DNA from: Candidatus Azophilus lithoversatilis
GTDB lineage: Bacteria; Pseudomonadota; Gammaproteobacteria; Pseudomonadales; Azotimanducaceae
Direction of reading: 5' to 3'
DNA: 64,000 nucleotides
Assembly: GCA_028278675.1 (NCBI GenBank)
Contig: JAQAJJ010000027.1
Location: forward strand, 4,986-68,985
Shown piece by piece: positions 2,289 through 59,521 of the stretch. Made by a program: the position numbers and the translations under genes. The notes beneath the pieces are model-generated. The model was not told the origin of the DNA and made no database searches. It saw only the letters and a list, made by a program, of their open reading frames with translations. Within the stretch, counting starts at the first letter, position 1; each line of letters starts with the position of its first letter.

Positions 2289-2565
2289 GGAACCTCTGAT
2301 CAAGTCGCGTTCGCTCAGCGTTTCACGGGTTGCGAATGGGGGCAATGCCGCAACCGCCCGGCGCGGCTGAGGATGCGGGCGGAATTCGGCCATTGCGCAC
2401 CGTGAAACGCCCTTCGGGAGGGCGCGCCCTTCAAGAAGGGCGTTTCGGGCGCGCTGGCCGCGTTGCGTCTCCTCCCGTGGTGCCTGCCACTGCTCGTCGT
2501 CGCGCCTCGCCATCACGCCCGCCAGACTCCTCTGAGCTTCCCGGACTTGATCAGAGGTTCCCTAG
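2285..2565. repeat. 281-bp MITE-like structured element bounded by 22-bp perfect terminal inverted repeats (CTAGGGAACCTCTGATCAAGTC at 2285-2306; its reverse complement at 2544-2565)
   Basis: Inverted repeats read directly. Nested internal inverted repeats: GCGTTTCACGG 2318-2328 with CCGTGAAACGC 2400-2410; GAAACGCCCTTC 2404-2415 with GAAGGGCGTTTC 2435-2446; GGTTGCG 2328-2334 with CGCAACC 2349-2355. The fimT TAG (2286-2288) and the pilY1 TAG (2564-2562) both lie inside the terminal repeats. No credible ORF inside. Confidence 0.75.
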
Positions 2566-4612
2566 AATTCCCTAAGTTCACGCCAGGAGAGCCGCCCAGT
2601 CAGCTGGCCAATGGGCGGGCCGATGGCTTGGGAGCGGCGGTTCAGGCCACCAGCCAGGATCAATTGGCCGCCGCCGAAGCTAGGCAGAACCTGGGGCGTT
2701 GCCAACGGGCCGCTAAAGTCGCGCTCATCGAAGACCATGCCGGGGGCGCGGTCGCCGGCGTCCACGGACAGCAGGTCGTTCTCGTTGAGAATGCCGTCGC
2801 CGTTCAAATCCAGCACCGGGTGCCGGGGACTGCCGCCAGTGGCCCACTGAATCGGCACAACGGCACCGAGCGCGCCGCCAGCCGCCGAATTCGACATCAG
2901 GGTGGTCACCAACAGAAGATCGCCCCAAGCCACCAAGCGCGGATGGAAGCGCTCACCCGACTGTTGGCTATCGAGATCGATGCGCCAACCGCGCACCGCC
3001 GATGCGGAAGCGTCCGGTGGCCGGTAGTTCACTGGCTGGTCGGCAACAACGCGATTGAGCCGCGGCGACCCATTGCCCATGGAGCGAACGTTGATCATGC
3101 TCTGCAGCACCAGCGAATCAGGGTCCACCACGCCGCCCGAATCCCAAATGCCGTACAGGGACTGAACGGCCACATCGCCCTGTTGATTAGGACTCAAGAA
3201 GGCTCCCGTGACGAAGACGACCATGAAGCCCGGTTGGCTGGGGTGCTTGAAGACCTTGGGCCTGGCGGTGATGGGTTGAGGAACGCCCTGCCCGGTGCCA
3301 TAGCGCGCCTGGAACAGGCGCGTTGCGCTCCAGTTAGCGGGCTCCGGATTGGAAAGATCGAAGCGATGCAAGTTGCCCTCAAGATCTCCGGCGTAGGCCC
3401 GGTCCACCGTGCCGTTCAGATCCAAGTCCACCAAGGCCGGCTCGCCGAGCCCCGAAGCGGCGCTGGCTGGCAGCTTGACGAAGTCGTGCGCCGACCAGCC
3501 GTCAAGCCCTGCATCAATGAACAGCACGAACAAGACGGCGCGTCCAGCCGTGCTGCCGTCGCCGTTGCCCAGAACCGCCACCCACCTTCTGCCGCCCCGC
3601 AGGTAGCGCGCGTTGCTCATGGCGAGGCCGACTTGGCTGGTGGCGTAGCCCAGATCCTTCACCGGTGTCCCGTACTCGTCCAAATCAGTGACCGGCTGGC
3701 CGTCCGCACCGACCGGTGGGACGTCGTCGGCATCCGTAAACTCCCAAAGCACCATCCCCGCTGCCGCTTCGGCGGAGTCAGCGCTCGTGTCGGGATCCGT
3801 GACATCGAGGGCGAAGTAGCCCTTGCCGCCTTTGCCAAGCCCGCCGACCAGCAGCGTCCGCCAAGCCCTCGCTACACTGCCGGGTGCCTGCCCCACATAG
3901 ACATCCTCCACGGTTGGCGAGGGGATCCGCAAAGGAGGGCGGGACGCCGAACCCGGGGCGGCGTCAAGCCGGGTGGCGAAGCGCTGATCGCCGTCGATCA
4001 GCTTATTCGGAACGTAGGCGAACAACTCATCGCCATTGCTGGCGTCAAAGGCGTGCAGCAGACCGTCGTTAGAGCCGACGTACACCACCCCGGGGCGGTG
4101 CGCCCAATCCACCGCAAACTCGGAATAGGCCTCGCCGCGGGCCACGGGATAGGGCGCGTGATCGCGGCGCACGGCCCTGGGCGCCCCGACAATCACCGGC
4201 TCCGAACCGACAATCGGCCCCAGCCGCCGGTTGTTGCCTTCGCCGCGCAGCCACTTGAGCTGCGCTGCATCCAAGACGGCCCTTTGGTTTGCATTAAGGC
4301 GATCGTGCTCGAATGGCAGGCCAGCCCAAATGACTCGATCCTGGGTGACGATTATCCGACGTTCCGGCGAAGCGCGTTCGAGCCGCTGCGCGGCTCGCCA
4401 CAGCACACGCGATCCGTTTGCATCAAAACGCACGGCATGAAGATCGCCGGTCGCCGCGTCCAAGTCATGGAAGGCCCGATATTCAACCCGCCCTCGGCGG
4501 ACGCCAAGGGGCTGAAGGAGAAGGTGGCCAAGGCCCCGGCAGCACCCGCCTCGGCCAGACAGGCAGCGGCGGAGAGACCCATCCCGGCCAAGGCGCCGAC
4601 AAGGCGATTCAC
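2562..4612 (-). CDS. pilY1: PilY1-type pilus tip adhesin / pilus biogenesis factor (short form without vWA domain); apparent frameshift near 4485-4500
   Basis: Track ORF 2562..4670 carries PilY1 C-terminal propeller-type motifs (VYVGSNDGLLHAFDASNGDELFAYVP, DLDLNGTVDRAYAGDLEGNLHRFDL, C-terminal LSWRELREF). Its first ~60 codons are Arg/Cys-rich junk. A signal peptide (VNRLVGALAGMGLSAAACLAEAGAAGA) is encoded in another frame (track ORF 4352..4612). That frame starts with a GTG overlapping the pilX stop as GTGA. Confidence 0.8.
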
Positions 4613-5334
4613 GGGCCGTTCTCCGGCGGCAACCGCACAGCGAAGGTGCTTTGCAGTTGCGCCCGGGCATGGGGGGTGGCCCCGAAGCCCCGGGCGGTGA
4701 TTCGAAATATGGCGGTTCGCGGCGCTTCAGCGACGGTGGACGGCTCCAGCAAGTGAGGATCGTCCGGCCCGGTCAGGGTCGTCAGCCATTCGATCAGATA
4801 GCGTGGCGGAGCGGCCGCACCGGCAACCGGCGCGGCCCGGCGGCTGCCGCCTCCACCGTTCACCCAGACGCGCTCAGCCTGCCACACCGGGGCTTCGCCG
4901 AAGTCCGCCGGGCGCCACAGGCCATCCGTGCCCGCCGCCGTATAGCGGGCCGCATCGGGACTTGAGGCCAACAAAAAGCGCTCGCCCTCCCCCAACGCTC
5001 GCTCCGCCGCCTGCAAGGCAATCAGATTGTCATGGGCGTTGCGGGCCATGCGCGCCTGAAGCTGAGTGGTCTGCACCCCCGCCACGCCAGCGAGGGTCAG
5101 CAGCATCAATATGACAAGGCTGATGAACAGGGCAATGCCACGCTGACCCCTCCCGGGAGCCTTTGCCTTCGGAAGTCGCGAAAGCGAAAAGTCGATATCA
5201 CAGCGCCCTTGGCCGATCGATTGACGGGAACATCGAGTCGCATTTGACGAAATCGAGCGGCCGAGGGCGCGGACGAGAGCGAGTCCACAGCCGTGAATTC
5301 CGTGCCCAAAGGCTCCTGATTCGCTACCACCCAT
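4609..5334 (-). CDS. pilX: Type IV pilus minor pilin PilX
   Basis: Track ORF 241 aa with a PilX N-terminal segment QRGIALFISLVILMLLTLAGVAGVQTTQLQARMARN. The only in-frame start is ATG 5334, which overlaps the pilW end by 11 nt and gives an unusually long N-terminal leader. It sits between pilW and pilY1. Confidence 0.8.
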   Translation of the reverse strand: MGGSESGAFGHGIHGCGLALVRALGRSISSNATRCSRQSIGQGRCDIDFSLSRLPKAKAPGRGQRGIALFISLVILMLLTLAGVAGVQTTQLQARMARNAHDNLIALQAAERALGEGERFLLASSPDAARYTAAGTDGLWRPADFGEAPVWQAERVWVNGGGGSRRAAPVAGAAAPPRYLIEWLTTLTGPDDPHLLEPSTVAEAPRTAIFRITARGFGATPHARAQLQSTFAVRLPPENGP

Positions 5335-15444: not shown

Positions 15445-16062
15445 CTACAGCGCGATCGATAGCGACGTGCCGGTCACATAGCCTTGGGGCCGGGCCAGCA
15501 GGCGCGCCAGCAAGGTCATGAGGCTAGCCGAGGGTTCGCGGTTTGGCTGGCCCGAAACATGGACCGAGTTGGCGATCAGCGGCGGCTGCAGCGGCCCCCC
15601 TTCCGAGGCCGCGACCAAGGTCATCTGCCGCAACGATCCGTTGCGGATATCGGCGGCGAGAGCGGCCTCTTCACCCGCAGCCGACGCCCCGGCCAAGGTC
15701 ACCACATCCGTTGCCGCCTTAGTGCGCAGGCGTTTGGCGAGCTTTAGGTGGAAATGATAACCGGCGATGCTTTCCTCAATGAAATCAGCCATCTGCTCGC
15801 CCTCCCGCAGATCACGCCCCACAAAGACGATGGCATCGGCGCGGCTAACGGCAGCCGCCACCCGATCGAGCGCCGCGGCGACTAGGACCTCCTTGCTGAG
15901 ATCAGCGACGCCGAGTTCGACCGCGCCGTCCGAGCCAACGTTGACGACCCGCGCACCCAAGGCCACAAGGCAGGCTTCCGCCTGATCCCGGAGCCCCCCG
16001 ACCTCGCCCGCCAAGACGACGGTGCGGCCACGAAGAGCGTCAGCTGGCGAGGAATCCGCCAT
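15445..16062 (-). CDS. Rossmann-fold protein related to SDRs but with degenerate cofactor/catalytic motifs
   Basis: 205 aa. GRTVVLAGEVGGL sits where the TGxxxGxG motif would be, and I could find no clear YxxxK. It overlaps the upstream SDR gene by 23 nt, suggesting co-translation. Confidence 0.5.
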   Translation of the reverse strand: MADSSPADALRGRTVVLAGEVGGLRDQAEACLVALGARVVNVGSDGAVELGVADLSKEVLVAAALDRVAAAVSRADAIVFVGRDLREGEQMADFIEESIAGYHFHLKLAKRLRTKAATDVVTLAGASAAGEEAALAADIRNGSLRQMTLVAASEGGPLQPPLIANSVHVSGQPNREPSASLMTLLARLLARPQGYVTGTSLSIAL

Positions 16063-16819
16063 CGGCCAGCACCTCCCGGTCTTCGAGTCGAATGGCTGGG
16101 TCGAGCATCAGCAGCAGCGTTTCACCGATTTCCTCGGGTTCGGCCCAGCGCCGCAGCGCAATGGTATCGGCGAGCTGATTGACGAGCGGCGAATCGCGAC
16201 CAATGGCCTTGTCCACTTGCGGCGTCATCGTATATCCCGGCAGCAGGCTCTTGACCTGCACCGAGTGCGTCTGCCCGGCGAGCATCCGCTCATAGGCCCT
16301 GTTGAGACCGGCCATGCCCCCCTTCGTGGCGCAGTAGGCGCTCGCGCCATCCTGGCCGGTGCGGCTCAATATCGAGGAGATGTTAACGGCCATGCCGGGG
16401 AAGCCGCGCTCGCCGTAGGACTCGGCAATGAGCGGCAAGCAGTGCTTGAGGCCGTAGTAGGCGCCGATCAGGTTGACCCGAACCAGCAACATCAGGGTCT
16501 CAGCAGGGGTTTCCTCGATTGGGCTCAAATGGGAAATGCCCGCGTTGTTGACCAGGAAGTCGAGGCGCCCAAAGCGTTCCAGGGTCTCGCCGGTGATGCG
16601 TTCCCAATCGGCCTCGGCACCAACGTCCTGGGGCATGTACGCCACGCTTAGGCCCAAGCCGACGAACTCCGCTTCGGCCTGCCTGCCATCGGCTTCGGTG
16701 CGGGCAGTAATGACCACCCGCACGCCGGCGCGCCCCAGTGCCAAGGCGCATCCGTAACCGATCCCGGTGCTGCCGCCGGTGACAATGGCGACACAGCCGC
16801 GCAGGCGGTTCCCGGTCAT
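16040..16819 (-). CDS. SDR-family oxidoreductase
   Basis: From ATG 16819: MTGNRLRGCVAIVTGGSTGIGYG (TGxxxGxG) and SAYCATKGG (YxxxK). The track start 16924 would overlap the upstream gene. Confidence 0.88.
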   Translation of the reverse strand: MTGNRLRGCVAIVTGGSTGIGYGCALALGRAGVRVVITARTEADGRQAEAEFVGLGLSVAYMPQDVGAEADWERITGETLERFGRLDFLVNNAGISHLSPIEETPAETLMLLVRVNLIGAYYGLKHCLPLIAESYGERGFPGMAVNISSILSRTGQDGASAYCATKGGMAGLNRAYERMLAGQTHSVQVKSLLPGYTMTPQVDKAIGRDSPLVNQLADTIALRRWAEPEEIGETLLLMLDPAIRLEDREVLADGGFLAS

Positions 16820-16826
16820 CGCCTCG

Positions 16827-17171
16827 TTAGCCGAACACTTCCGTGAAAAGCGTTTCGCTGAAGCCCACCAGCAGGGTTTTGCCAACCACCATCGTCGGTG
16901 CGCGCAGGTTGCCCGTCGTGCCAAGCACGGTCGCTACCGCTTCTTCTGATGTCACGTTCGCGCCGCTGAACTCGCTGAGTTTCCGACCTTTGGCGACGGC
17001 CACCCGGCTGGCTTTCTTCAACAGATCCAAAGCGTCGCCACGCTGCAGCTTGCGGCTGGCCGGAACGGTCTCGGCCACTTCGATGCCTCTGGCCTCCAGA
17101 AACTTGGAGGCTCGTCCGCAGCTGGTTCAGCCGCCGCGGTAGTAGTACCAATCAACAGTAGGTGAGGTCAT
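16827..17171 (-). CDS. ArsC/Spx/YffB-family thioredoxin-fold protein with an in-frame TGA (17129-17127) at the first Cys of the CxxC motif; candidate selenoprotein (alternatively a pseudogene)
   Basis: Track ORF 16827..17078 (83 aa, GTG start) lacks an active site. The same frame continues upstream as ATG(17171) MTSPTVDWYYYRGG-TGA-TSCGRASKFLEARGIE, joined directly to that ORF. The total is 114 codons, typical for the family. U-T-S-C-G-R-A parallels the C-T-S-C-R-K-A of Spx. Confidence 0.55.
17092..17111 (-). promoter_or_regulatory. SECIS-like hairpin GCCUCCA-AGUUUC-UGGAGGC starting 15 nt after the in-frame UGA
   Basis: A 7-bp perfect stem with a 6-nt loop containing GU, read on the minus strand. 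Spacing and shape fall within what is described for bacterial SECIS elements (recalled, not computed). Confidence 0.4.
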
Positions 17172-17358
17172 TGGTTTCTCCCATTTGGTTGGAGTAGTTT
17201 CCAGATCAGGCCCGGTCTTGGCAACCCGCGAACCTTGGCCCTTGGGGGCCAAGATTCGTTTGGAGTTTCGCTATTGCGAAACTCCGCGCCCGTTGAGTAC
17301 CGGACGCTTCCATATGGTTCTGAGCCCGCACAGCCGTCCCAGCCATCGGCGATCATGG

Positions 17359-32361: not shown

Positions 32362-33018
32362 TCAGGTCGAGAGCATCAAGCCGAACAGGATGAGCCAGAC
32401 CACGAACAAAAAGTGCCAGTAAACGGCGCAAAGCTCCACGCCCAGCCGAGTCTTCACCAGCGCCCCCGCCTTGGCGTGGCCCGAGGTTCGGGCCAGCGCC
32501 ACCAGCCCGCCGAGCAAGTGCAGGACATGCAGCCCGGTGAGCACGTAGAAAAAGGAATTCGCCGGGTTGCTGGCCACCAAGTAGCCTGAGGCGACCAAGC
32601 CCTGCCAAACGATCAGCTGCCCCGCCATGAAGGCCAACGCGCAGCCGCCGCCAATCACGAGCCCGGTGCGGATGGCTGCCCATTGCTCCCGAGCGGCGCC
32701 CCGCCAAGCCCATTGCAGGCCCAAGCTGCCAACAAACAAGATGGCGGTGTTGAACCACAGCAGGCCCGGCTCCGGCAGCGGACGCCAATCCGACAGTTCC
32801 ATGCGGATTGAGTAGGCGCTGACGAACAGGGCGAACAGCGAGGTGATAACGGCCAGCAGCACACCCAACGCTACCTTCGGCGGCGCTAGAAACCCTACCC
32901 CCTGCTGGGCTCCGGAAGGCGCACTGGCTACCCAAGGCTTGACATTGAAGGTCTGGCGCAGCAGCCACCAGACCACCGCCCCCATGAGCAGGGCCAGGAA
33001 TATGAGCGTCGCGGTCAT
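32362..33018 (-). CDS. Second heme-copper oxidase subunit III-like protein
   Basis: 218 aa; FYVLTGLHVLHLLGG and AVYWHFLFVVWLILF. Confidence 0.85.
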   Translation of the reverse strand: MTATLIFLALLMGAVVWWLLRQTFNVKPWVASAPSGAQQGVGFLAPPKVALGVLLAVITSLFALFVSAYSIRMELSDWRPLPEPGLLWFNTAILFVGSLGLQWAWRGAAREQWAAIRTGLVIGGGCALAFMAGQLIVWQGLVASGYLVASNPANSFFYVLTGLHVLHLLGGLVALARTSGHAKAGALVKTRLGVELCAVYWHFLFVVWLILFGLMLST

Positions 33019-33021
33019 GAA

Positions 33022-34824
33022 TCAGCTTTCCGCCTTGGTCTCGCCTTGGCCGCGGGCCGCGGCCATTTCCTCGGACGGCACGTTTTGCGGGATGAAGTCC
33101 TGTTCCGCCCCCGGTACGCCGTAGTCGTAGGCCCACCGGTAAACCGACGGCAGTTCGTCCTCATCGAAGTTACCGTGCCGCGGCGGCGTATGCGGGGTTT
33201 GCCATTCCAAGGTAGTGGCCTTCCAAGGGTTGTGGCCCGCCTCCTTGCCGCTGAACAGGCTCTTGATGACGTTGTAGATGAAGATCAACTGAGCCAAGGC
33301 AACAATGATGGCGGCGATGGAAATGGCCGCGTTCAAGTCCTGCGCCGAATCCGACATGAAGGCGGTCTCGCCATAGGCGTAGTAACGCCGGGGCACGCCT
33401 TCAAAGCCCAAGTAGTGCATCGGGTAGTAAATGGCGTAGGTGCCGAGGAACGTCATCCAGAAATGGATCTTGCCCAAGGTCTCGTCGAACATCCTGCCGG
33501 TCATCTTCGGATACCAGTGGTAGATGGCGCCAAACACCACCAGCACCGGCGAAACCGCCATCACCATATGAAAGTGGGCCACCACGAAGTAGGTGTCGGA
33601 AAGCGGCAGATCGACCGTGACGTTGCCTAGGAACAGCCCGGTCAGCCCGCCGTTGATGAAGGTGAAAATGAAGCCTATGGCGAACAGCATCGGCACCGTG
33701 AGCTGAATGTTGCCCCGCCACAGGGTCAGCACCCAGTTGTACACCTTGATGGCCGTCGGCACGGCGATGATCAACGTGGTGGTGGCGAAGAAGAAGCCGA
33801 AGTAGGGGTTCATGCCGCTGACGTACATGTGGTGCGCCCAGACGATGAAGCTAAGCGCTCCGATCGCGACGATGGCCCAAACCATCATCCGATAGCCGAA
33901 GATGTTCTTGCGGGCGTGGGTGGCGAGCACATCCGAGACGATGCCGAAGGCCGGCAGGGCGACGATGTATACCTCCGGATGCCCGAAGAACCAGAACAGG
34001 TGCTGGAAGAGGATCGGGCTGCCGCCGTCATAGGCGGTCTGCTCGCCCGCCGCCAACATGGCCGGCATGAAAAAGCTGGTGCCGATCAGACGGTCGAGAA
34101 TCATCATGATGCAGCTGACGAAGAGCGCCGGAAAGGCCAGCAACGCCAGCACCGTGGCCATGAAAATGCCCCAGACCGTTAGCGGCAGGCGCATCAGCGT
34201 CATGCCTCGGGTGCGCGCCTGCAGCACGGTCACCACGTAGTTGAGCCCGCCCATGGTGAAGCCGATGATGAACACGCACAGTGAGATGAGCATCAGGATG
34301 ATGCCCGCCCCCGTGCCCGGGGTGCCGCCAATCACCGCCTGCGGCGGGTACAGCGTCCAGCCGGCCCCGGTGGGGCCGCCGGGGACGAAGAAGCTGGCCA
34401 CCAGGATCAGCACCGCCGCCAGATAGACCCAGTAGCTGACCATGTTGACGTAGGGGAACACCATGTCCCGGGCGCCGCACATCAACGGAATGAGGTAGTT
34501 GCCGAAGCCGCCCAAAAAGAGCGCCGTCAGCAGGTAGATGACCATGATCATGCCGTGCATGGTCACGAACTGCAGGTAGTTGGCCGGGTCAATCAGGGAG
34601 AAGGACTCCGGGAAGCCCAACTGCAGGCGCATGAGAATCGACAGCACCAGCGCCACAAGGCCGATGCCGATGGCGGTGATGCCGTACTGGATGGCAATGA
34701 CCTTGGCGTCCTGGCTCCAGATGTACTTGCCGATGAAGGTCTTCGGGTGATAGAGCGGCTCCTCGGCGACCTCAAACGGCCGCAGATCCGCATCAGTGAC
34801 TGCATCGTGGGCGACTTGAGCCAT
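33022..34824 (-). CDS. coxA: Cytochrome c oxidase subunit I
   Basis: From ATG 34824, 2 nt after the subunit II stop. Motifs LFWFFGHPEVYIVALPAFG, VWAHHMYVSG and VVAHFHMVMA are present. Confidence 0.95.
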   Translation of the reverse strand: MAQVAHDAVTDADLRPFEVAEEPLYHPKTFIGKYIWSQDAKVIAIQYGITAIGIGLVALVLSILMRLQLGFPESFSLIDPANYLQFVTMHGMIMVIYLLTALFLGGFGNYLIPLMCGARDMVFPYVNMVSYWVYLAAVLILVASFFVPGGPTGAGWTLYPPQAVIGGTPGTGAGIILMLISLCVFIIGFTMGGLNYVVTVLQARTRGMTLMRLPLTVWGIFMATVLALLAFPALFVSCIMMILDRLIGTSFFMPAMLAAGEQTAYDGGSPILFQHLFWFFGHPEVYIVALPAFGIVSDVLATHARKNIFGYRMMVWAIVAIGALSFIVWAHHMYVSGMNPYFGFFFATTTLIIAVPTAIKVYNWVLTLWRGNIQLTVPMLFAIGFIFTFINGGLTGLFLGNVTVDLPLSDTYFVVAHFHMVMAVSPVLVVFGAIYHWYPKMTGRMFDETLGKIHFWMTFLGTYAIYYPMHYLGFEGVPRRYYAYGETAFMSDSAQDLNAAISIAAIIVALAQLIFIYNVIKSLFSGKEAGHNPWKATTLEWQTPHTPPRHGNFDEDELPSVYRWAYDYGVPGAEQDFIPQNVPSEEMAAARGQGETKAES

Positions 34825-34825
34825 G

Positions 34826-36241
34826 CTATTCCTCCGCTCCTGAGTAGGCCGCGCCAGCCTCGGCTGAAGCGGCGGCGACTTGAGTTTCACCTAAGGTGTT
34901 GATGTAGGCGACGACGTCGTTGACGGCGTCGTCGTCCTTGAGTATGCGAGCCATTTCCGCCATTTGCCAGCCATAGAGGTCGTCCTCGTGGCGCCCCCTT
35001 ATGTCGGCCTTGAAGTTCTCCAATTGACGCGCCAAGTACCAATCGGTCATGCCCGCCATGCGCGGCGCATTCAGCGCCTTGATGCCTTGCGCTTCGTGCC
35101 CGTGGCAGGCGCCGCAGGTGACCCAGATGTCCTCCCCGCGTTCCGCGTCCCCGGCAATGGTGGTCTCGGCCGGCTCGTCCGGCAGGGTGCCAATGTAGGC
35201 GATGACATCCTCGATGGCCTGATCGTCCGCAAGCGTCATGACCATCGGCGCCATCTGCTGGCCAAAGGTGTCCGCTGGGTGGGCGCCGCGCGCGCCGATT
35301 TTGTAGTAGTTGAGCTGACGGCGCAGATACCAGTCCTCCTGGCCGGCGATCTTCGGTGAGTTCATGACCTGCATGCCCTTACCCTCCGGGCCGTGGCAGG
35401 CCACGCAAACGGCGTACTGCGCCTGGCCGGCCACCGGGTCGCCCTGCGGGCGGGCGAGGATGTCAGCGTAGGTGGGCTGCGCGGCGTACCACGCCGCGTA
35501 GTCCGCCGCCTCATCGACCACCACCTTGCCGCGCATGGCGAAGTGGCCGATCCCGCACAGCTCCTCGCAAAGCACCTCATACTCGCCGGCCACCGTGGGT
35601 TTAAGCCAAATGTAGGAGACCAAGCCCGGCACCAAGTCCATCTTGACCCGAAACTGGGCGACGGTGAAGTTGTGCAGCACGTCCTTGGAGCGCAGATTGA
35701 TCTTGACGTTGCGGTCGAGCGGCAGATGCACCACGTTGCTCTCGATCAGCCGGTCATCCTGGCCGTGGGGGTCGTCCGGATCCATGCCGAAGGGGTTGTC
35801 GTCGCTAATGAGCTTGGCGTCCACGTTGCCGAACTTGCCGTCGTCGCCCGGCAGCCGGTAGCTCCAGTGCCACTGCTGGCCGATGGCCTCGATTTCGTCG
35901 GCATCCTCCGGCACGGTGACGAACTCAGCCCAAACGATCAGGCCCGGGGCCAGCATGGCGGCCACGCCAACCGCGGTAATGGCGGTGAGCCAGAACTCCA
36001 GCTTGTGATTCTCCGGCTGGTATTCGGACCGCCTTTCCTTGTTGTAGCGGAACTTGATGACGCAGTACGCCATGAAGGCGTTGACGGCCACGAAGACGAT
36101 GCCCGTCACCCAGAAGGTGATGTCGATCGTCGTGTCGATCATGCCCCAGTTCGAGGCCAAGGGGGTCAGGTACCAAGGACTCAGAATATGAAAAAGGACC
36201 GAGCCAACGATCAAAATGATCAATGCAACAGCAAATGCCAT
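34826..36241 (-). CDS. coxB: Cytochrome c oxidase subunit II fused to a C-terminal dihaem cytochrome c domain
   Basis: 471 aa. CuA motif VLHNF...CEELCGIGHFAM, followed by two CxxCH sites (CVACHG and CGACHG). Confidence 0.93.
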   Translation of the reverse strand: MAFAVALIILIVGSVLFHILSPWYLTPLASNWGMIDTTIDITFWVTGIVFVAVNAFMAYCVIKFRYNKERRSEYQPENHKLEFWLTAITAVGVAAMLAPGLIVWAEFVTVPEDADEIEAIGQQWHWSYRLPGDDGKFGNVDAKLISDDNPFGMDPDDPHGQDDRLIESNVVHLPLDRNVKINLRSKDVLHNFTVAQFRVKMDLVPGLVSYIWLKPTVAGEYEVLCEELCGIGHFAMRGKVVVDEAADYAAWYAAQPTYADILARPQGDPVAGQAQYAVCVACHGPEGKGMQVMNSPKIAGQEDWYLRRQLNYYKIGARGAHPADTFGQQMAPMVMTLADDQAIEDVIAYIGTLPDEPAETTIAGDAERGEDIWVTCGACHGHEAQGIKALNAPRMAGMTDWYLARQLENFKADIRGRHEDDLYGWQMAEMARILKDDDAVNDVVAYINTLGETQVAAASAEAGAAYSGAEE

Positions 36242-59045: not shown

Positions 59046-59521
59046 ACGCACAGCGCATCAAAGCCCACCTTGAATTGCTGACCCCCTTCGTCGGGCGCGA
59101 AATCGGGGTGTCGCCCTGGGTGAGCATCGACCAGGAGCGAATCGATGCGCACGCCCGCAACACTGGCGATGACGCCTGGATCCATACCGACCCGGCCCGA
59201 GCGGCCCGGGAAACCCCCTTCGGCTGCACCATTGCGCAGAACTTCCTGCTGATGTCGCTGCTGACCGACATGGCCCAAGCCACCAACCTGCCCATGGACG
59301 GCGTGGCCTACCGCACCAGCTACGGCTTCGATCGGCTGCGCATCGTGCAGCCCGTGCCGGTGGGCCGCCGGGTGCGGGGACGGTTTGAATTGAGGAAAGT
59401 CGAGGCCAAGGGGCATCATGGCGTCTTGGTTCGCTTGGACGCCTCAATCGAAATCGAGGACGATGATTTGGCGCCCGCGCTGGCCGCGGAGTGGCTGATC
59501 TATCGGCGGCTGGAGGATTGA
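59042..59521 (+). CDS. MaoC-like (R-specific enoyl-CoA hydratase / hot-dog fold) dehydratase
   Basis: 159 aa. WVSIDQERIDAHARNTGDDAWIHTDPARAARETPFGCTIAQNFLLMSL matches the MaoC dehydratase motif region. Its ATGA overlaps the upstream gene. Confidence 0.75.
   Translation: MNAQRIKAHLELLTPFVGREIGVSPWVSIDQERIDAHARNTGDDAWIHTDPARAARETPFGCTIAQNFLLMSLLTDMAQATNLPMDGVAYRTSYGFDRLRIVQPVPVGRRVRGRFELRKVEAKGHHGVLVRLDASIEIEDDDLAPALAAEWLIYRRLED

Follow-up and report, generated by a model that had tools for sequence, protein, structure and literature searches.

A gene on the minus strand (17171–16827) of a 64,000-nucleotide stretch of Candidatus Azophilus lithoversatilis DNA (contig JAQAJJ010000027.1; hereafter the window) very probably encodes a 114-residue selenoprotein of the NCBIfam family NF041106, in which the UGA at codon 15 would be recoded to selenocysteine (Sec) by means of a hairpin located downstream in the mRNA. 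The 83-aa open reading frame (ORF) called at this place is a truncated annotation of the 114-residue selenoprotein.

Gene structure

Direct reading of the minus strand bore out all the coordinates that the initial annotation had given for the gene, namely the ATG at 17171, the TGA at 17129–17127, the hairpin at 17111–17092 and the length of 114 codons. The frame opens with the ATG (17171–17169) and closes with a TAA stop codon (16829–16827), and the only in-frame TGA that interrupts it follows 14 sense codons (MTSPTVDWYYYRGG). After the TGA, the frame continues with T-S-C-G-R-A-S-K-F-L-E-A-R-G-I-E and then runs into the 83-aa GTG ORF. Translation of the whole frame thus gives the read-through product MTSPTVDWYYYRGG-U-TSCGRASKFLEARGIEV...FTEVFG. 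Further towards the C-terminus, the motif G-T-T-G-N-L-R-A-P (Table 1) would form the cis-Pro loop of a thioredoxin fold, facing the UxxC site.

Conservation of the UGA codon and Sec/Cys pairing

Genomic relatives were collected by scanning one genome per GTDB species, which yielded at least 595 of them, and the best 80 were analysed. The hosts of these 80 belong to the Gammaproteobacteria (Pseudomonadales), Acidobacteriota, Myxococcota, Planctomycetes, Gemmatimonadota, Ca. Binatia, Ca. Eisenbacteria, Opitutales and others. TGA was found at the identical column in 82 of 82 genomic sequences, a set made up of the 80 best relatives, the window itself and a Logan contig identical to it. The frame is kept on either side of the codon, as are W-[YH]-Y-x-R-x-G upstream of the TGA and T-x-C downstream. 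The usable metagenomic loci likewise carried TGA at this column within a frame conserved on both sides (78/78); the metagenome scan had been seeded with an alignment of Cys forms and aimed at Cys-form DNA, and it returned only TGA forms. The column of Cys18, the second position of the UxxC motif to carry a redox residue, is encoded by TGC in 47 and by TGT in 32 sequences of the genomic set, and is Cys in 151/151 sequences of the synonymous-usage comparison.

Genuine Cys homologues, whose DNA was obtained locus by locus, carry TGT (locus L164) or TGC (L165, L166/L167, L172 and L173) at the TGA column, and are continuous proteins of 112–119 aa. The occurrence of TGA and a Cys codon (TGC/TGT) at one column is the classical Sec/Cys signature. 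In the protein alignment, the U column of the full-length homologues is occupied by C or W; the "W" database entry L168 proved to be TGA at the DNA level, and W does not match the code-11 translation. The family gene stands alone and is scattered over at least eight phyla, and its Cys forms are rare.

The TGA is not a sequencing error, and was reproduced in three independent assemblies. Identity reaches 100% over 5,974 bp with the Logan assembly of SRR35761419, and 98.9% over 13 kb (126 mismatches) with a long-read (HiFi) ENA contig, ptg000816l (ERZ18545484, 885 kb). In the latter, the selenoprotein gene shows two amino-acid differences, and both the TGA and the hairpin are the same. The initial annotation had proposed to look for Cys or Sec at this column in homologues and for the TGA in further sequence data; both checks thus came out in its favour, with five Cys forms facing the TGA forms and with the Logan and HiFi contigs both keeping the TGA. 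Furthermore, TGA is the commonest ordinary stop codon of the window, ending 25 of its 42 long coding-like ORFs, and the standard genetic code therefore applies there.

The hairpin downstream of the UGA codon

The hairpin consists of a 5' arm GCCUCCA (17111–17105), a loop AGUUUC (17104–17099) and a 3' arm UGGAGGC (17098–17092), with the G-U of the loop at nt 27–28 counted from the U of the UGA, or 24–25 nt past the UGA. On the count from the U, the helix is formed by columns 19–25 with 32–38. These columns were paired in 93.7% of the cells among 79 distinct genomic sequences, compared with 25–39% when the partners were slid by 1–3 columns. The pair 21–36 covaries (GC 28, CG 15, GU 5, UG 3, AU 1, unpaired 27), and the covariation score of the hairpin was reached by 0/500 shuffles. 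In the pooled set of genomes and metagenomes, which comprises 146 distinct 48-nt sequences, at least six of the seven pairs were kept in every sequence, and C23, C24, G27, U28, U29, U32, G33 and G34 were invariant.

The codons inside the hairpin are constrained at synonymous sites as well. Ser at position +7 is TCC in 145/145 cases, whereas Ser+2 of the same gene uses five codons. Lys+8 is always AAG (124/124), compared with AAG 50 and AAA 31 for Lys+18, and an Arg at position +8 is always AGG (13/13); Leu+10 is CTG or TTG (YTG) in 124/124, compared with CTG 66 and CTC 64 for Leu+27. The synonymous entropy is 0 at the Ser TCC and Lys AAG hairpin codons, and the constraint is limited to the hairpin, with other conserved codons varying normally.

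The Cys forms served as a control. All of the five independent Cys forms break at least one of the hairpin invariants: G27 is replaced by A in L164, the C23–G34 pair is a C-A mismatch in L172, and L165, L166 and L173 use TCG, CGA or CTC codons or have lost the helix entirely. The constraint on the hairpin is thus tied to the presence of the UGA, as expected for a selenocysteine insertion sequence (SECIS). These results establish that the hairpin is under RNA-level selection, and the SECIS-like hairpin of the initial annotation is accordingly backed by conservation, covariation and synonymous-site constraint. Rfam searches, performed at gathering thresholds over the whole window and at permissive E-values over 17040–17180, gave chance hits only; Rfam contains no bacterial SECIS model.

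The hairpin resembles the SECIS of Escherichia coli fdhF in lying inside the coding sequence directly 3' of the UGA, in its short GC-rich stem, in tolerating an internal mismatch or bulge of the stem (pair 21–36) and in its small apical loop with a G-U, which is invariant in the window family. The fdhF loop is AGGUCU, with the G-U at nt 23–24 from the U of the UGA. The window gene differs in that its G-U lies at nt 27–28, and the primary sequences are unrelated. The data set provides a very clean family-specific SECIS definition, composed of the eight invariant nucleotides, the covarying 21–36 pair and a mostly-A position 18, from which a covariance model could be started or mutagenesis planned.

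The last of these positions, column 18 (window 17112, minus strand), is the third base of the Arg/Lys +5 codon just 5' of the stem, which ends in A in 121/146 sequences (CGA, AAA or AGA, the first of these being an otherwise rare codon). Such a pattern points to an unpaired A that is kept at the foot of the helix. Reduced synonymous variation was also seen at codons −5 to −2 before the UGA (TAC, CAC, CGC, AAG).

Family membership

For the comparison with NCBIfam models, U was entered as C in the read-through product, which matched NF041106 (ArsC_rel_Se_1, ArsC family (seleno)protein) with 104.4 bits against a curated cutoff of 85 (E = 4.4e-30), and the match spans residues 6–109, corresponding to positions 1–107 of the 107-position model. 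The gene is thus a member of an already curated selenoprotein family, and the family is not new. A search of 5.8 billion proteins returned 329 homologues, most of which are annotated with a length of 83 or 90 aa and begin right behind the U position; for two of them, at 78–81% identity, NCBI already uses the name "ArsC family (seleno)protein". A profile search of the full library gave 337 clusters (50% identity) at E <= 1e-10, again mostly N-terminally truncated calls, and both Cys and "W" (TGA) forms occur among their more distant full-length members. Across the database copies of the family, the truncated lengths are 83, 90 or about 100 aa.

Selenoproteins of this kind have been described in computational surveys. 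UxxS arsenate-reductase selenoproteins were reported from the Sargasso Sea selenoproteome (PMC1088965), and in the Global Ocean Sampling (GOS) selenoproteome of 2008 the entry "Arsenate reductase 2, cd03032, UxxC" comprises 42 Sec sequences, next to 238 homologues with Cys (PMC2398784). ArsC-like selenoproteins are also listed for Desulfotalea and Desulfuromonas (PMC1794560), and a 2022 review contains "Arsenate reductase-like protein, COG1393, UxxC", credited to the GOS study (PMC9312934). The initial annotation was therefore right in recalling ArsC-like Sec/Cys pairs predicted in marine metagenomes (PMC1088965, PMC2398784). NF041106 and the literature UxxC family "Arsenate reductase 2" (PMC2398784; PMC9312934) appear to be the same family, and the window protein shares with them the UxxC motif, the size and the occurrence in marine and environmental Proteobacteria. 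It is distinguished by its UxxC from the UxxS "Arsenate reductase 1" (PMC1088965, PMC2398784). There is no substantive difference from NF041106; the window copy is merely annotated as a truncated 83-aa ORF. The novelty that the initial annotation attached to the gene was thus overrated, since NF041106 models exactly this family and NCBI already names the close homologues so.

Fold and relation to Spx and ArsC

Profile alignment of the family with Bacillus subtilis Spx (1z3e and others) gave an E-value of about 6e-7. It matched the U/C column to Cys10 and C18 to Cys13 in the C10-T-S-C13 motif of Spx, in agreement with the initial assignment of the TGA to the first Cys of a CxxC, and G-N-L-R-A-P to L-L-R-R-P of Spx. 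The structure was modelled with AlphaFold2 for a natural Cys homologue, P0021, which is 60% identical to the window protein (predicted local distance difference test score, pLDDT, 91; predicted template modelling score, pTM, 0.83). The model is composed of β1 (9–12), α1 (17–29), β2 (36–38), α2 (45–53), a β-hairpin (57–62 and 65–70), α3 (77–83), β3 (94–97), β4 (100–103) and α4 (107–114), with C16 and C19 at the β1–α1 junction and P93 before β3. It thus has the core of a thioredoxin fold (β-α-β ... β-β-α), the CxxC at the N-terminus of α1 and a Pro loop before β3. In a Foldseek search of the PDB, the model retrieved Spx chains first, with a template modelling (TM) score of about 0.54, then ArsC-related proteins and YffB, and then Grx/NrdH-like proteins. 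The product is, as judged from this model, a divergent thioredoxin fold of the ArsC/Spx superfamily with U-x-x-C at the canonical redox position.

Among solved structures, the Spx/MgsR group of regulators, which sense redox state and bind RNA polymerase (TIGR01617; PDB 1z3e, 3gfk, 6gho), is the best match both by sequence profile and by structure, and shares the C/U-T-S-C at the β1–α1 junction, the L-R-x-P loop and the N-terminal CxxC on an ArsC-like fold. However, the window protein is ~17 residues shorter than the 131–132-residue Spx chains, the TM score is only about 0.54, and the P0021 model has a β-hairpin between β2 and β3, where Spx and ArsC carry a helical subdomain. The hosts also differ, being Gram-negative bacteria and other phyla; Spx is known mainly from Firmicutes. 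The score against TIGR01617 was 25.6 bits, below its cutoff of 75.05, and the Spx equivalog models gave 11–19 bits against cutoffs of 123–159.

With ArsC (R773 and E. coli chromosomal type), the product shares the superfamily and a nucleophilic Cys/Sec at the equivalent N-terminal position. The read-through product had no match to PF03960 (ArsC) even at E <= 1, and hhalign against E. coli ArsC found no significant similarity (E = 0.12, probability 0.5%, N-terminal 30 columns only); within these 30 weakly aligned columns, U15 falls on ArsC Cys12. The invariant R90 of the L-R-A-P motif is plausibly the counterpart of Arg94 in the ArsC triad Arg60/Arg94/Arg107; no residue could be aligned with Arg60 or Arg107. 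The window gene also differs from Grx-coupled ArsC in that no ars genes occur among the neighbours examined. Since the Spx threshold was missed and the similarity to E. coli ArsC was not significant, "ArsC" is to be read here as a superfamily label, not as a function. The assignment of the gene to the ArsC/Spx family in the initial annotation therefore stands as a distant Spx/ArsC-superfamily fold, and falls short at the level of the Spx and arsenate reductase thresholds.

Proposed mechanism and alternative explanations

In the proposed mechanism, the UGA at codon 15 would be recoded to Sec, with the hairpin 15 nt downstream acting as a bacterial SECIS. SelB carrying Sec-tRNA(Sec) would bind the apical stem and the G-U loop, and would deliver Sec before release factor 2 terminates translation. 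The U15-T-S-C18 motif would lie between strand β1 and the N-terminus of helix α1, opposite the conserved L-R-A-P loop, and the product would most likely be a selenol/thiol oxidoreductase that cycles through a Sec15–Cys18 selenenylsulfide. We infer by analogy that Sec is actually inserted in the source organism and that the product is redox-active, and its redox chemistry and physiological substrate are to be taken with the same reserve.

Several observations weigh against this proposal. No tRNA-Sec was found in the window (ARAGORN, Rfam) or in 60 related loci (ARAGORN), tblastn with E. coli SelA, SelB and SelD detected no selA, selB or selD in the window, and two scans of the window revealed no other selenoprotein genes. 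The Pfam scan of the read-through product gave no family even at E <= 1, and with no Pfam domain the fold assignment leans on weak profile matches and on the model of the 60%-identical Cys homologue. The single-sequence fold of 63 nt was no more stable than dinucleotide shuffles (z = −0.67), and 1.3% of the window's TGA triplets are followed by a 7-bp Watson-Crick stem with an early-loop G. On a single sequence the hairpin is thus weak evidence, and it is the comparative data that place it far above chance. Finally, no experimental study of the ArsC-like UxxC family was found in the literature searched.

These points have a bearing on the possibility that the gene is a stranded relic, namely that it retains the architecture of a selenoprotein gene in a host that has lost selA/B/C/D, so that translation stops at codon 15. 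The lack of sel genes, of tRNA-Sec and of a second selenoprotein gene in 64 kb would be in line with this, and lineage loss of selenoproteins is documented (PMC1794560). However, 64 kb is only about 1–2% of a genome, and the absence of sel genes, which were also missing from 20 kb of the syntenic HiFi contig, therefore says little. In a relic, decay or conversion to Cys, as in L164 and L172, would be expected, whereas the UGA, the UxxC, all SECIS invariants and the ribosome-binding site are intact, and are identical in the strain variant that has accumulated the 126 mismatches. We consider a relic very unlikely. Decoding of the UGA as Trp or Cys, either by a reassigned code or by near-cognate read-through stimulated by the hairpin, is given a still smaller probability. 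It would account for the database entries with W at this codon, and no Sec machinery was found in the 64-kb window. Yet more of the window's long ORFs end in TGA than in any other stop codon, the hosts come from phyla that use the standard code, and the W entries, which read TGA at the DNA level, disagree with the code-11 translation. In addition, homologues have a redox-active Cys at this position, and the codon is followed by a hairpin of SECIS geometry with the invariant G-U in a small apical loop.

The initial annotation itself had named a pseudogene as the alternative, in which a nonsense mutation has converted the active-site Cys codon of an ArsC/Spx-like gene (TGC/TGT to TGA). Only a single nucleotide change is needed for this, gene callers do give the 83-aa ORF, and the window has no sel genes. 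The comparative data effectively refute it: all of the 160 closest relatives, from many phyla, have TGA at the same column, purifying selection acts on the upstream peptide, the hairpin is both conserved and constrained at synonymous sites, and the strain variant, 1.1% diverged, keeps the gene intact. A negligible probability is likewise left for the view that the 83-aa ORF is the real product and that the upstream 14 codons with the hairpin form a leader peptide or an attenuator-type element. A short ORF, a stop codon and a hairpin are superficially similar to such an element, and an in-frame GTG is present at 17078. However, the GTG/TTG "starts" are not conserved, and the 83-, 90- and about 100-aa calls begin at different places; the Cys homologues are continuous through this region, an 83-aa product would be devoid of strand β1 and helix α1, and the hairpin has no U-tract. 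Recoding of UGA codon 15 to Sec thus remains by far the best account of the gene.

Implications

The annotation is to be corrected from the 83-aa ORF to a selenoprotein of 114 aa that carries a transl_except at codon 15, and the source gammaproteobacterium would by implication be a Sec user. Nothing in this would surprise a selenoprotein specialist, and a cultured or expressible member of the family would be useful. A more far-reaching view, that the clade is a functionally new, selenium-dependent and almost obligately Sec branch of the ArsC/Spx superfamily, we regard as unlikely. Its role could then be that of a selenenylsulfide redox sensor or regulator, comparable to Spx yet found outside Firmicutes, and another possibility would be a reductase for a substrate that Cys serves inefficiently.

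Gene neighbourhood

The features of the locus are collected in Table 1. The SDR-family gene is probably co-transcribed with the selenoprotein gene; this arrangement is common only to the close relatives L002, L003 and L169 and does not recur across the 80 loci. Conservation of the 205-aa ORF does not extend beyond the close relatives L003 and L169; the selenoprotein gene, the SDR gene and, in third place, this ORF may together form a lineage-specific operon. No neighbour family recurs across the 80 loci, and with no conserved neighbourhood beyond the close relatives, a function cannot be assigned by guilt by association.

Table 1. Features of the selenoprotein locus (window coordinates)
Feature	Position	Strand	Remarks
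205-aa ORF	15445–16062	−	Shares 23 nt with the end of the SDR gene; matched by neither Pfam nor NCBIfam
SDR-family oxidoreductase gene	16040–16819	−	Starts 7 nt after the stop codon of the selenoprotein gene
Predicted selenoprotein coding sequence, full length	16827–17171	−	114 sense codons including the putative UGA-Sec codon 15, then TAA stop
83-aa GTG ORF, truncated call of the same gene	16827–17078	−	From the ORF list; most database homologues likewise truncated (83 or 90 aa)
Codons for invariant G-T-T-G-N-L-R-A-P	16896–16922	−	Invariant columns in alignments; aligns to Spx L-L-R-R-P
SECIS-like hairpin	17092–17111	−	7-bp stem; starts 15 nt after the UGA
TGC codon of Cys18, presumed resolving Cys of UxxC	17118–17120	−	Cys invariant at this column in homologues
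In-frame UGA, putative Sec codon (residue 15)	17127–17129	−	First position of the U-T-S-C motif; translation and homologue alignment
Shine-Dalgarno-like GGGAGA	17177–17182	−	6 nt upstream of the ATG; direct sequence reading
MBL-fold gene	18474–17359	−	Upstream of the selenoprotein gene; 187-nt spacer

A scan for promoters and terminators found nothing above background. The 187-nt spacer contains a perfect 8-bp palindromic hairpin, CTTGGCCC-TTGG-GGGCCAAG, at 17234–17253; a terminator-like call was made for the plus strand alone, and is no stronger than expected from shuffles.

Other in-frame TGA candidates and sel-like genes

Other in-frame TGA candidates of the window, at 59446, 33024, 63920, 50761, 60535 and 2403, were rejected as same-frame adjacent genes, gene ends or shadow ORFs. 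At 2406–4697 on the plus strand, a 764-codon frame with coding-like G+C content at third codon positions and no Pfam hit is preceded by an in-frame TGA with 38 open codons before it, and was judged to be a shadow or unknown ORF. At 32364–34900 on the minus strand, two ORFs (622 and 219 codons) share a frame across the TGA at 33024, and the downstream one restarts with "MTATLIF" two codons later. They resemble neighbouring genes for cytochrome c oxidase subunits, an ordinary pair that shows how same-frame neighbours can mimic in-frame TGA candidates.

Among 1.5 Mb of related loci, tblastn with the E. coli SelA, SelB and SelD queries found a SelB-like gene in one only, L044, from an Acidobacteriota metagenome-assembled genome (MAG; CAZFLB010000062.1). 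This gene (L044:17178–17924, plus strand) codes for the N-terminal GTPase part of a SelB-like protein, with 41% identity to E. coli SelB across 245 aa; it lies ~7 kb downstream of the ArsC-like Sec gene of that genome and is cut off by the end of the contig. Its codon 126 is likewise an in-frame TGA (RELA*LEVREL), which could reflect an assembly error, a pseudogene or recoding. In a Ca. Eisenbacteria MAG, a 97-nt "tRNA-Thr (agt)" was called by ARAGORN right after the ArsC-like gene (L041:10352–10448, plus strand), and its length raised the suspicion of a tRNA-Sec. The call is probably a false positive, because Rfam finds neither a tRNA nor a tRNA-Sec there.

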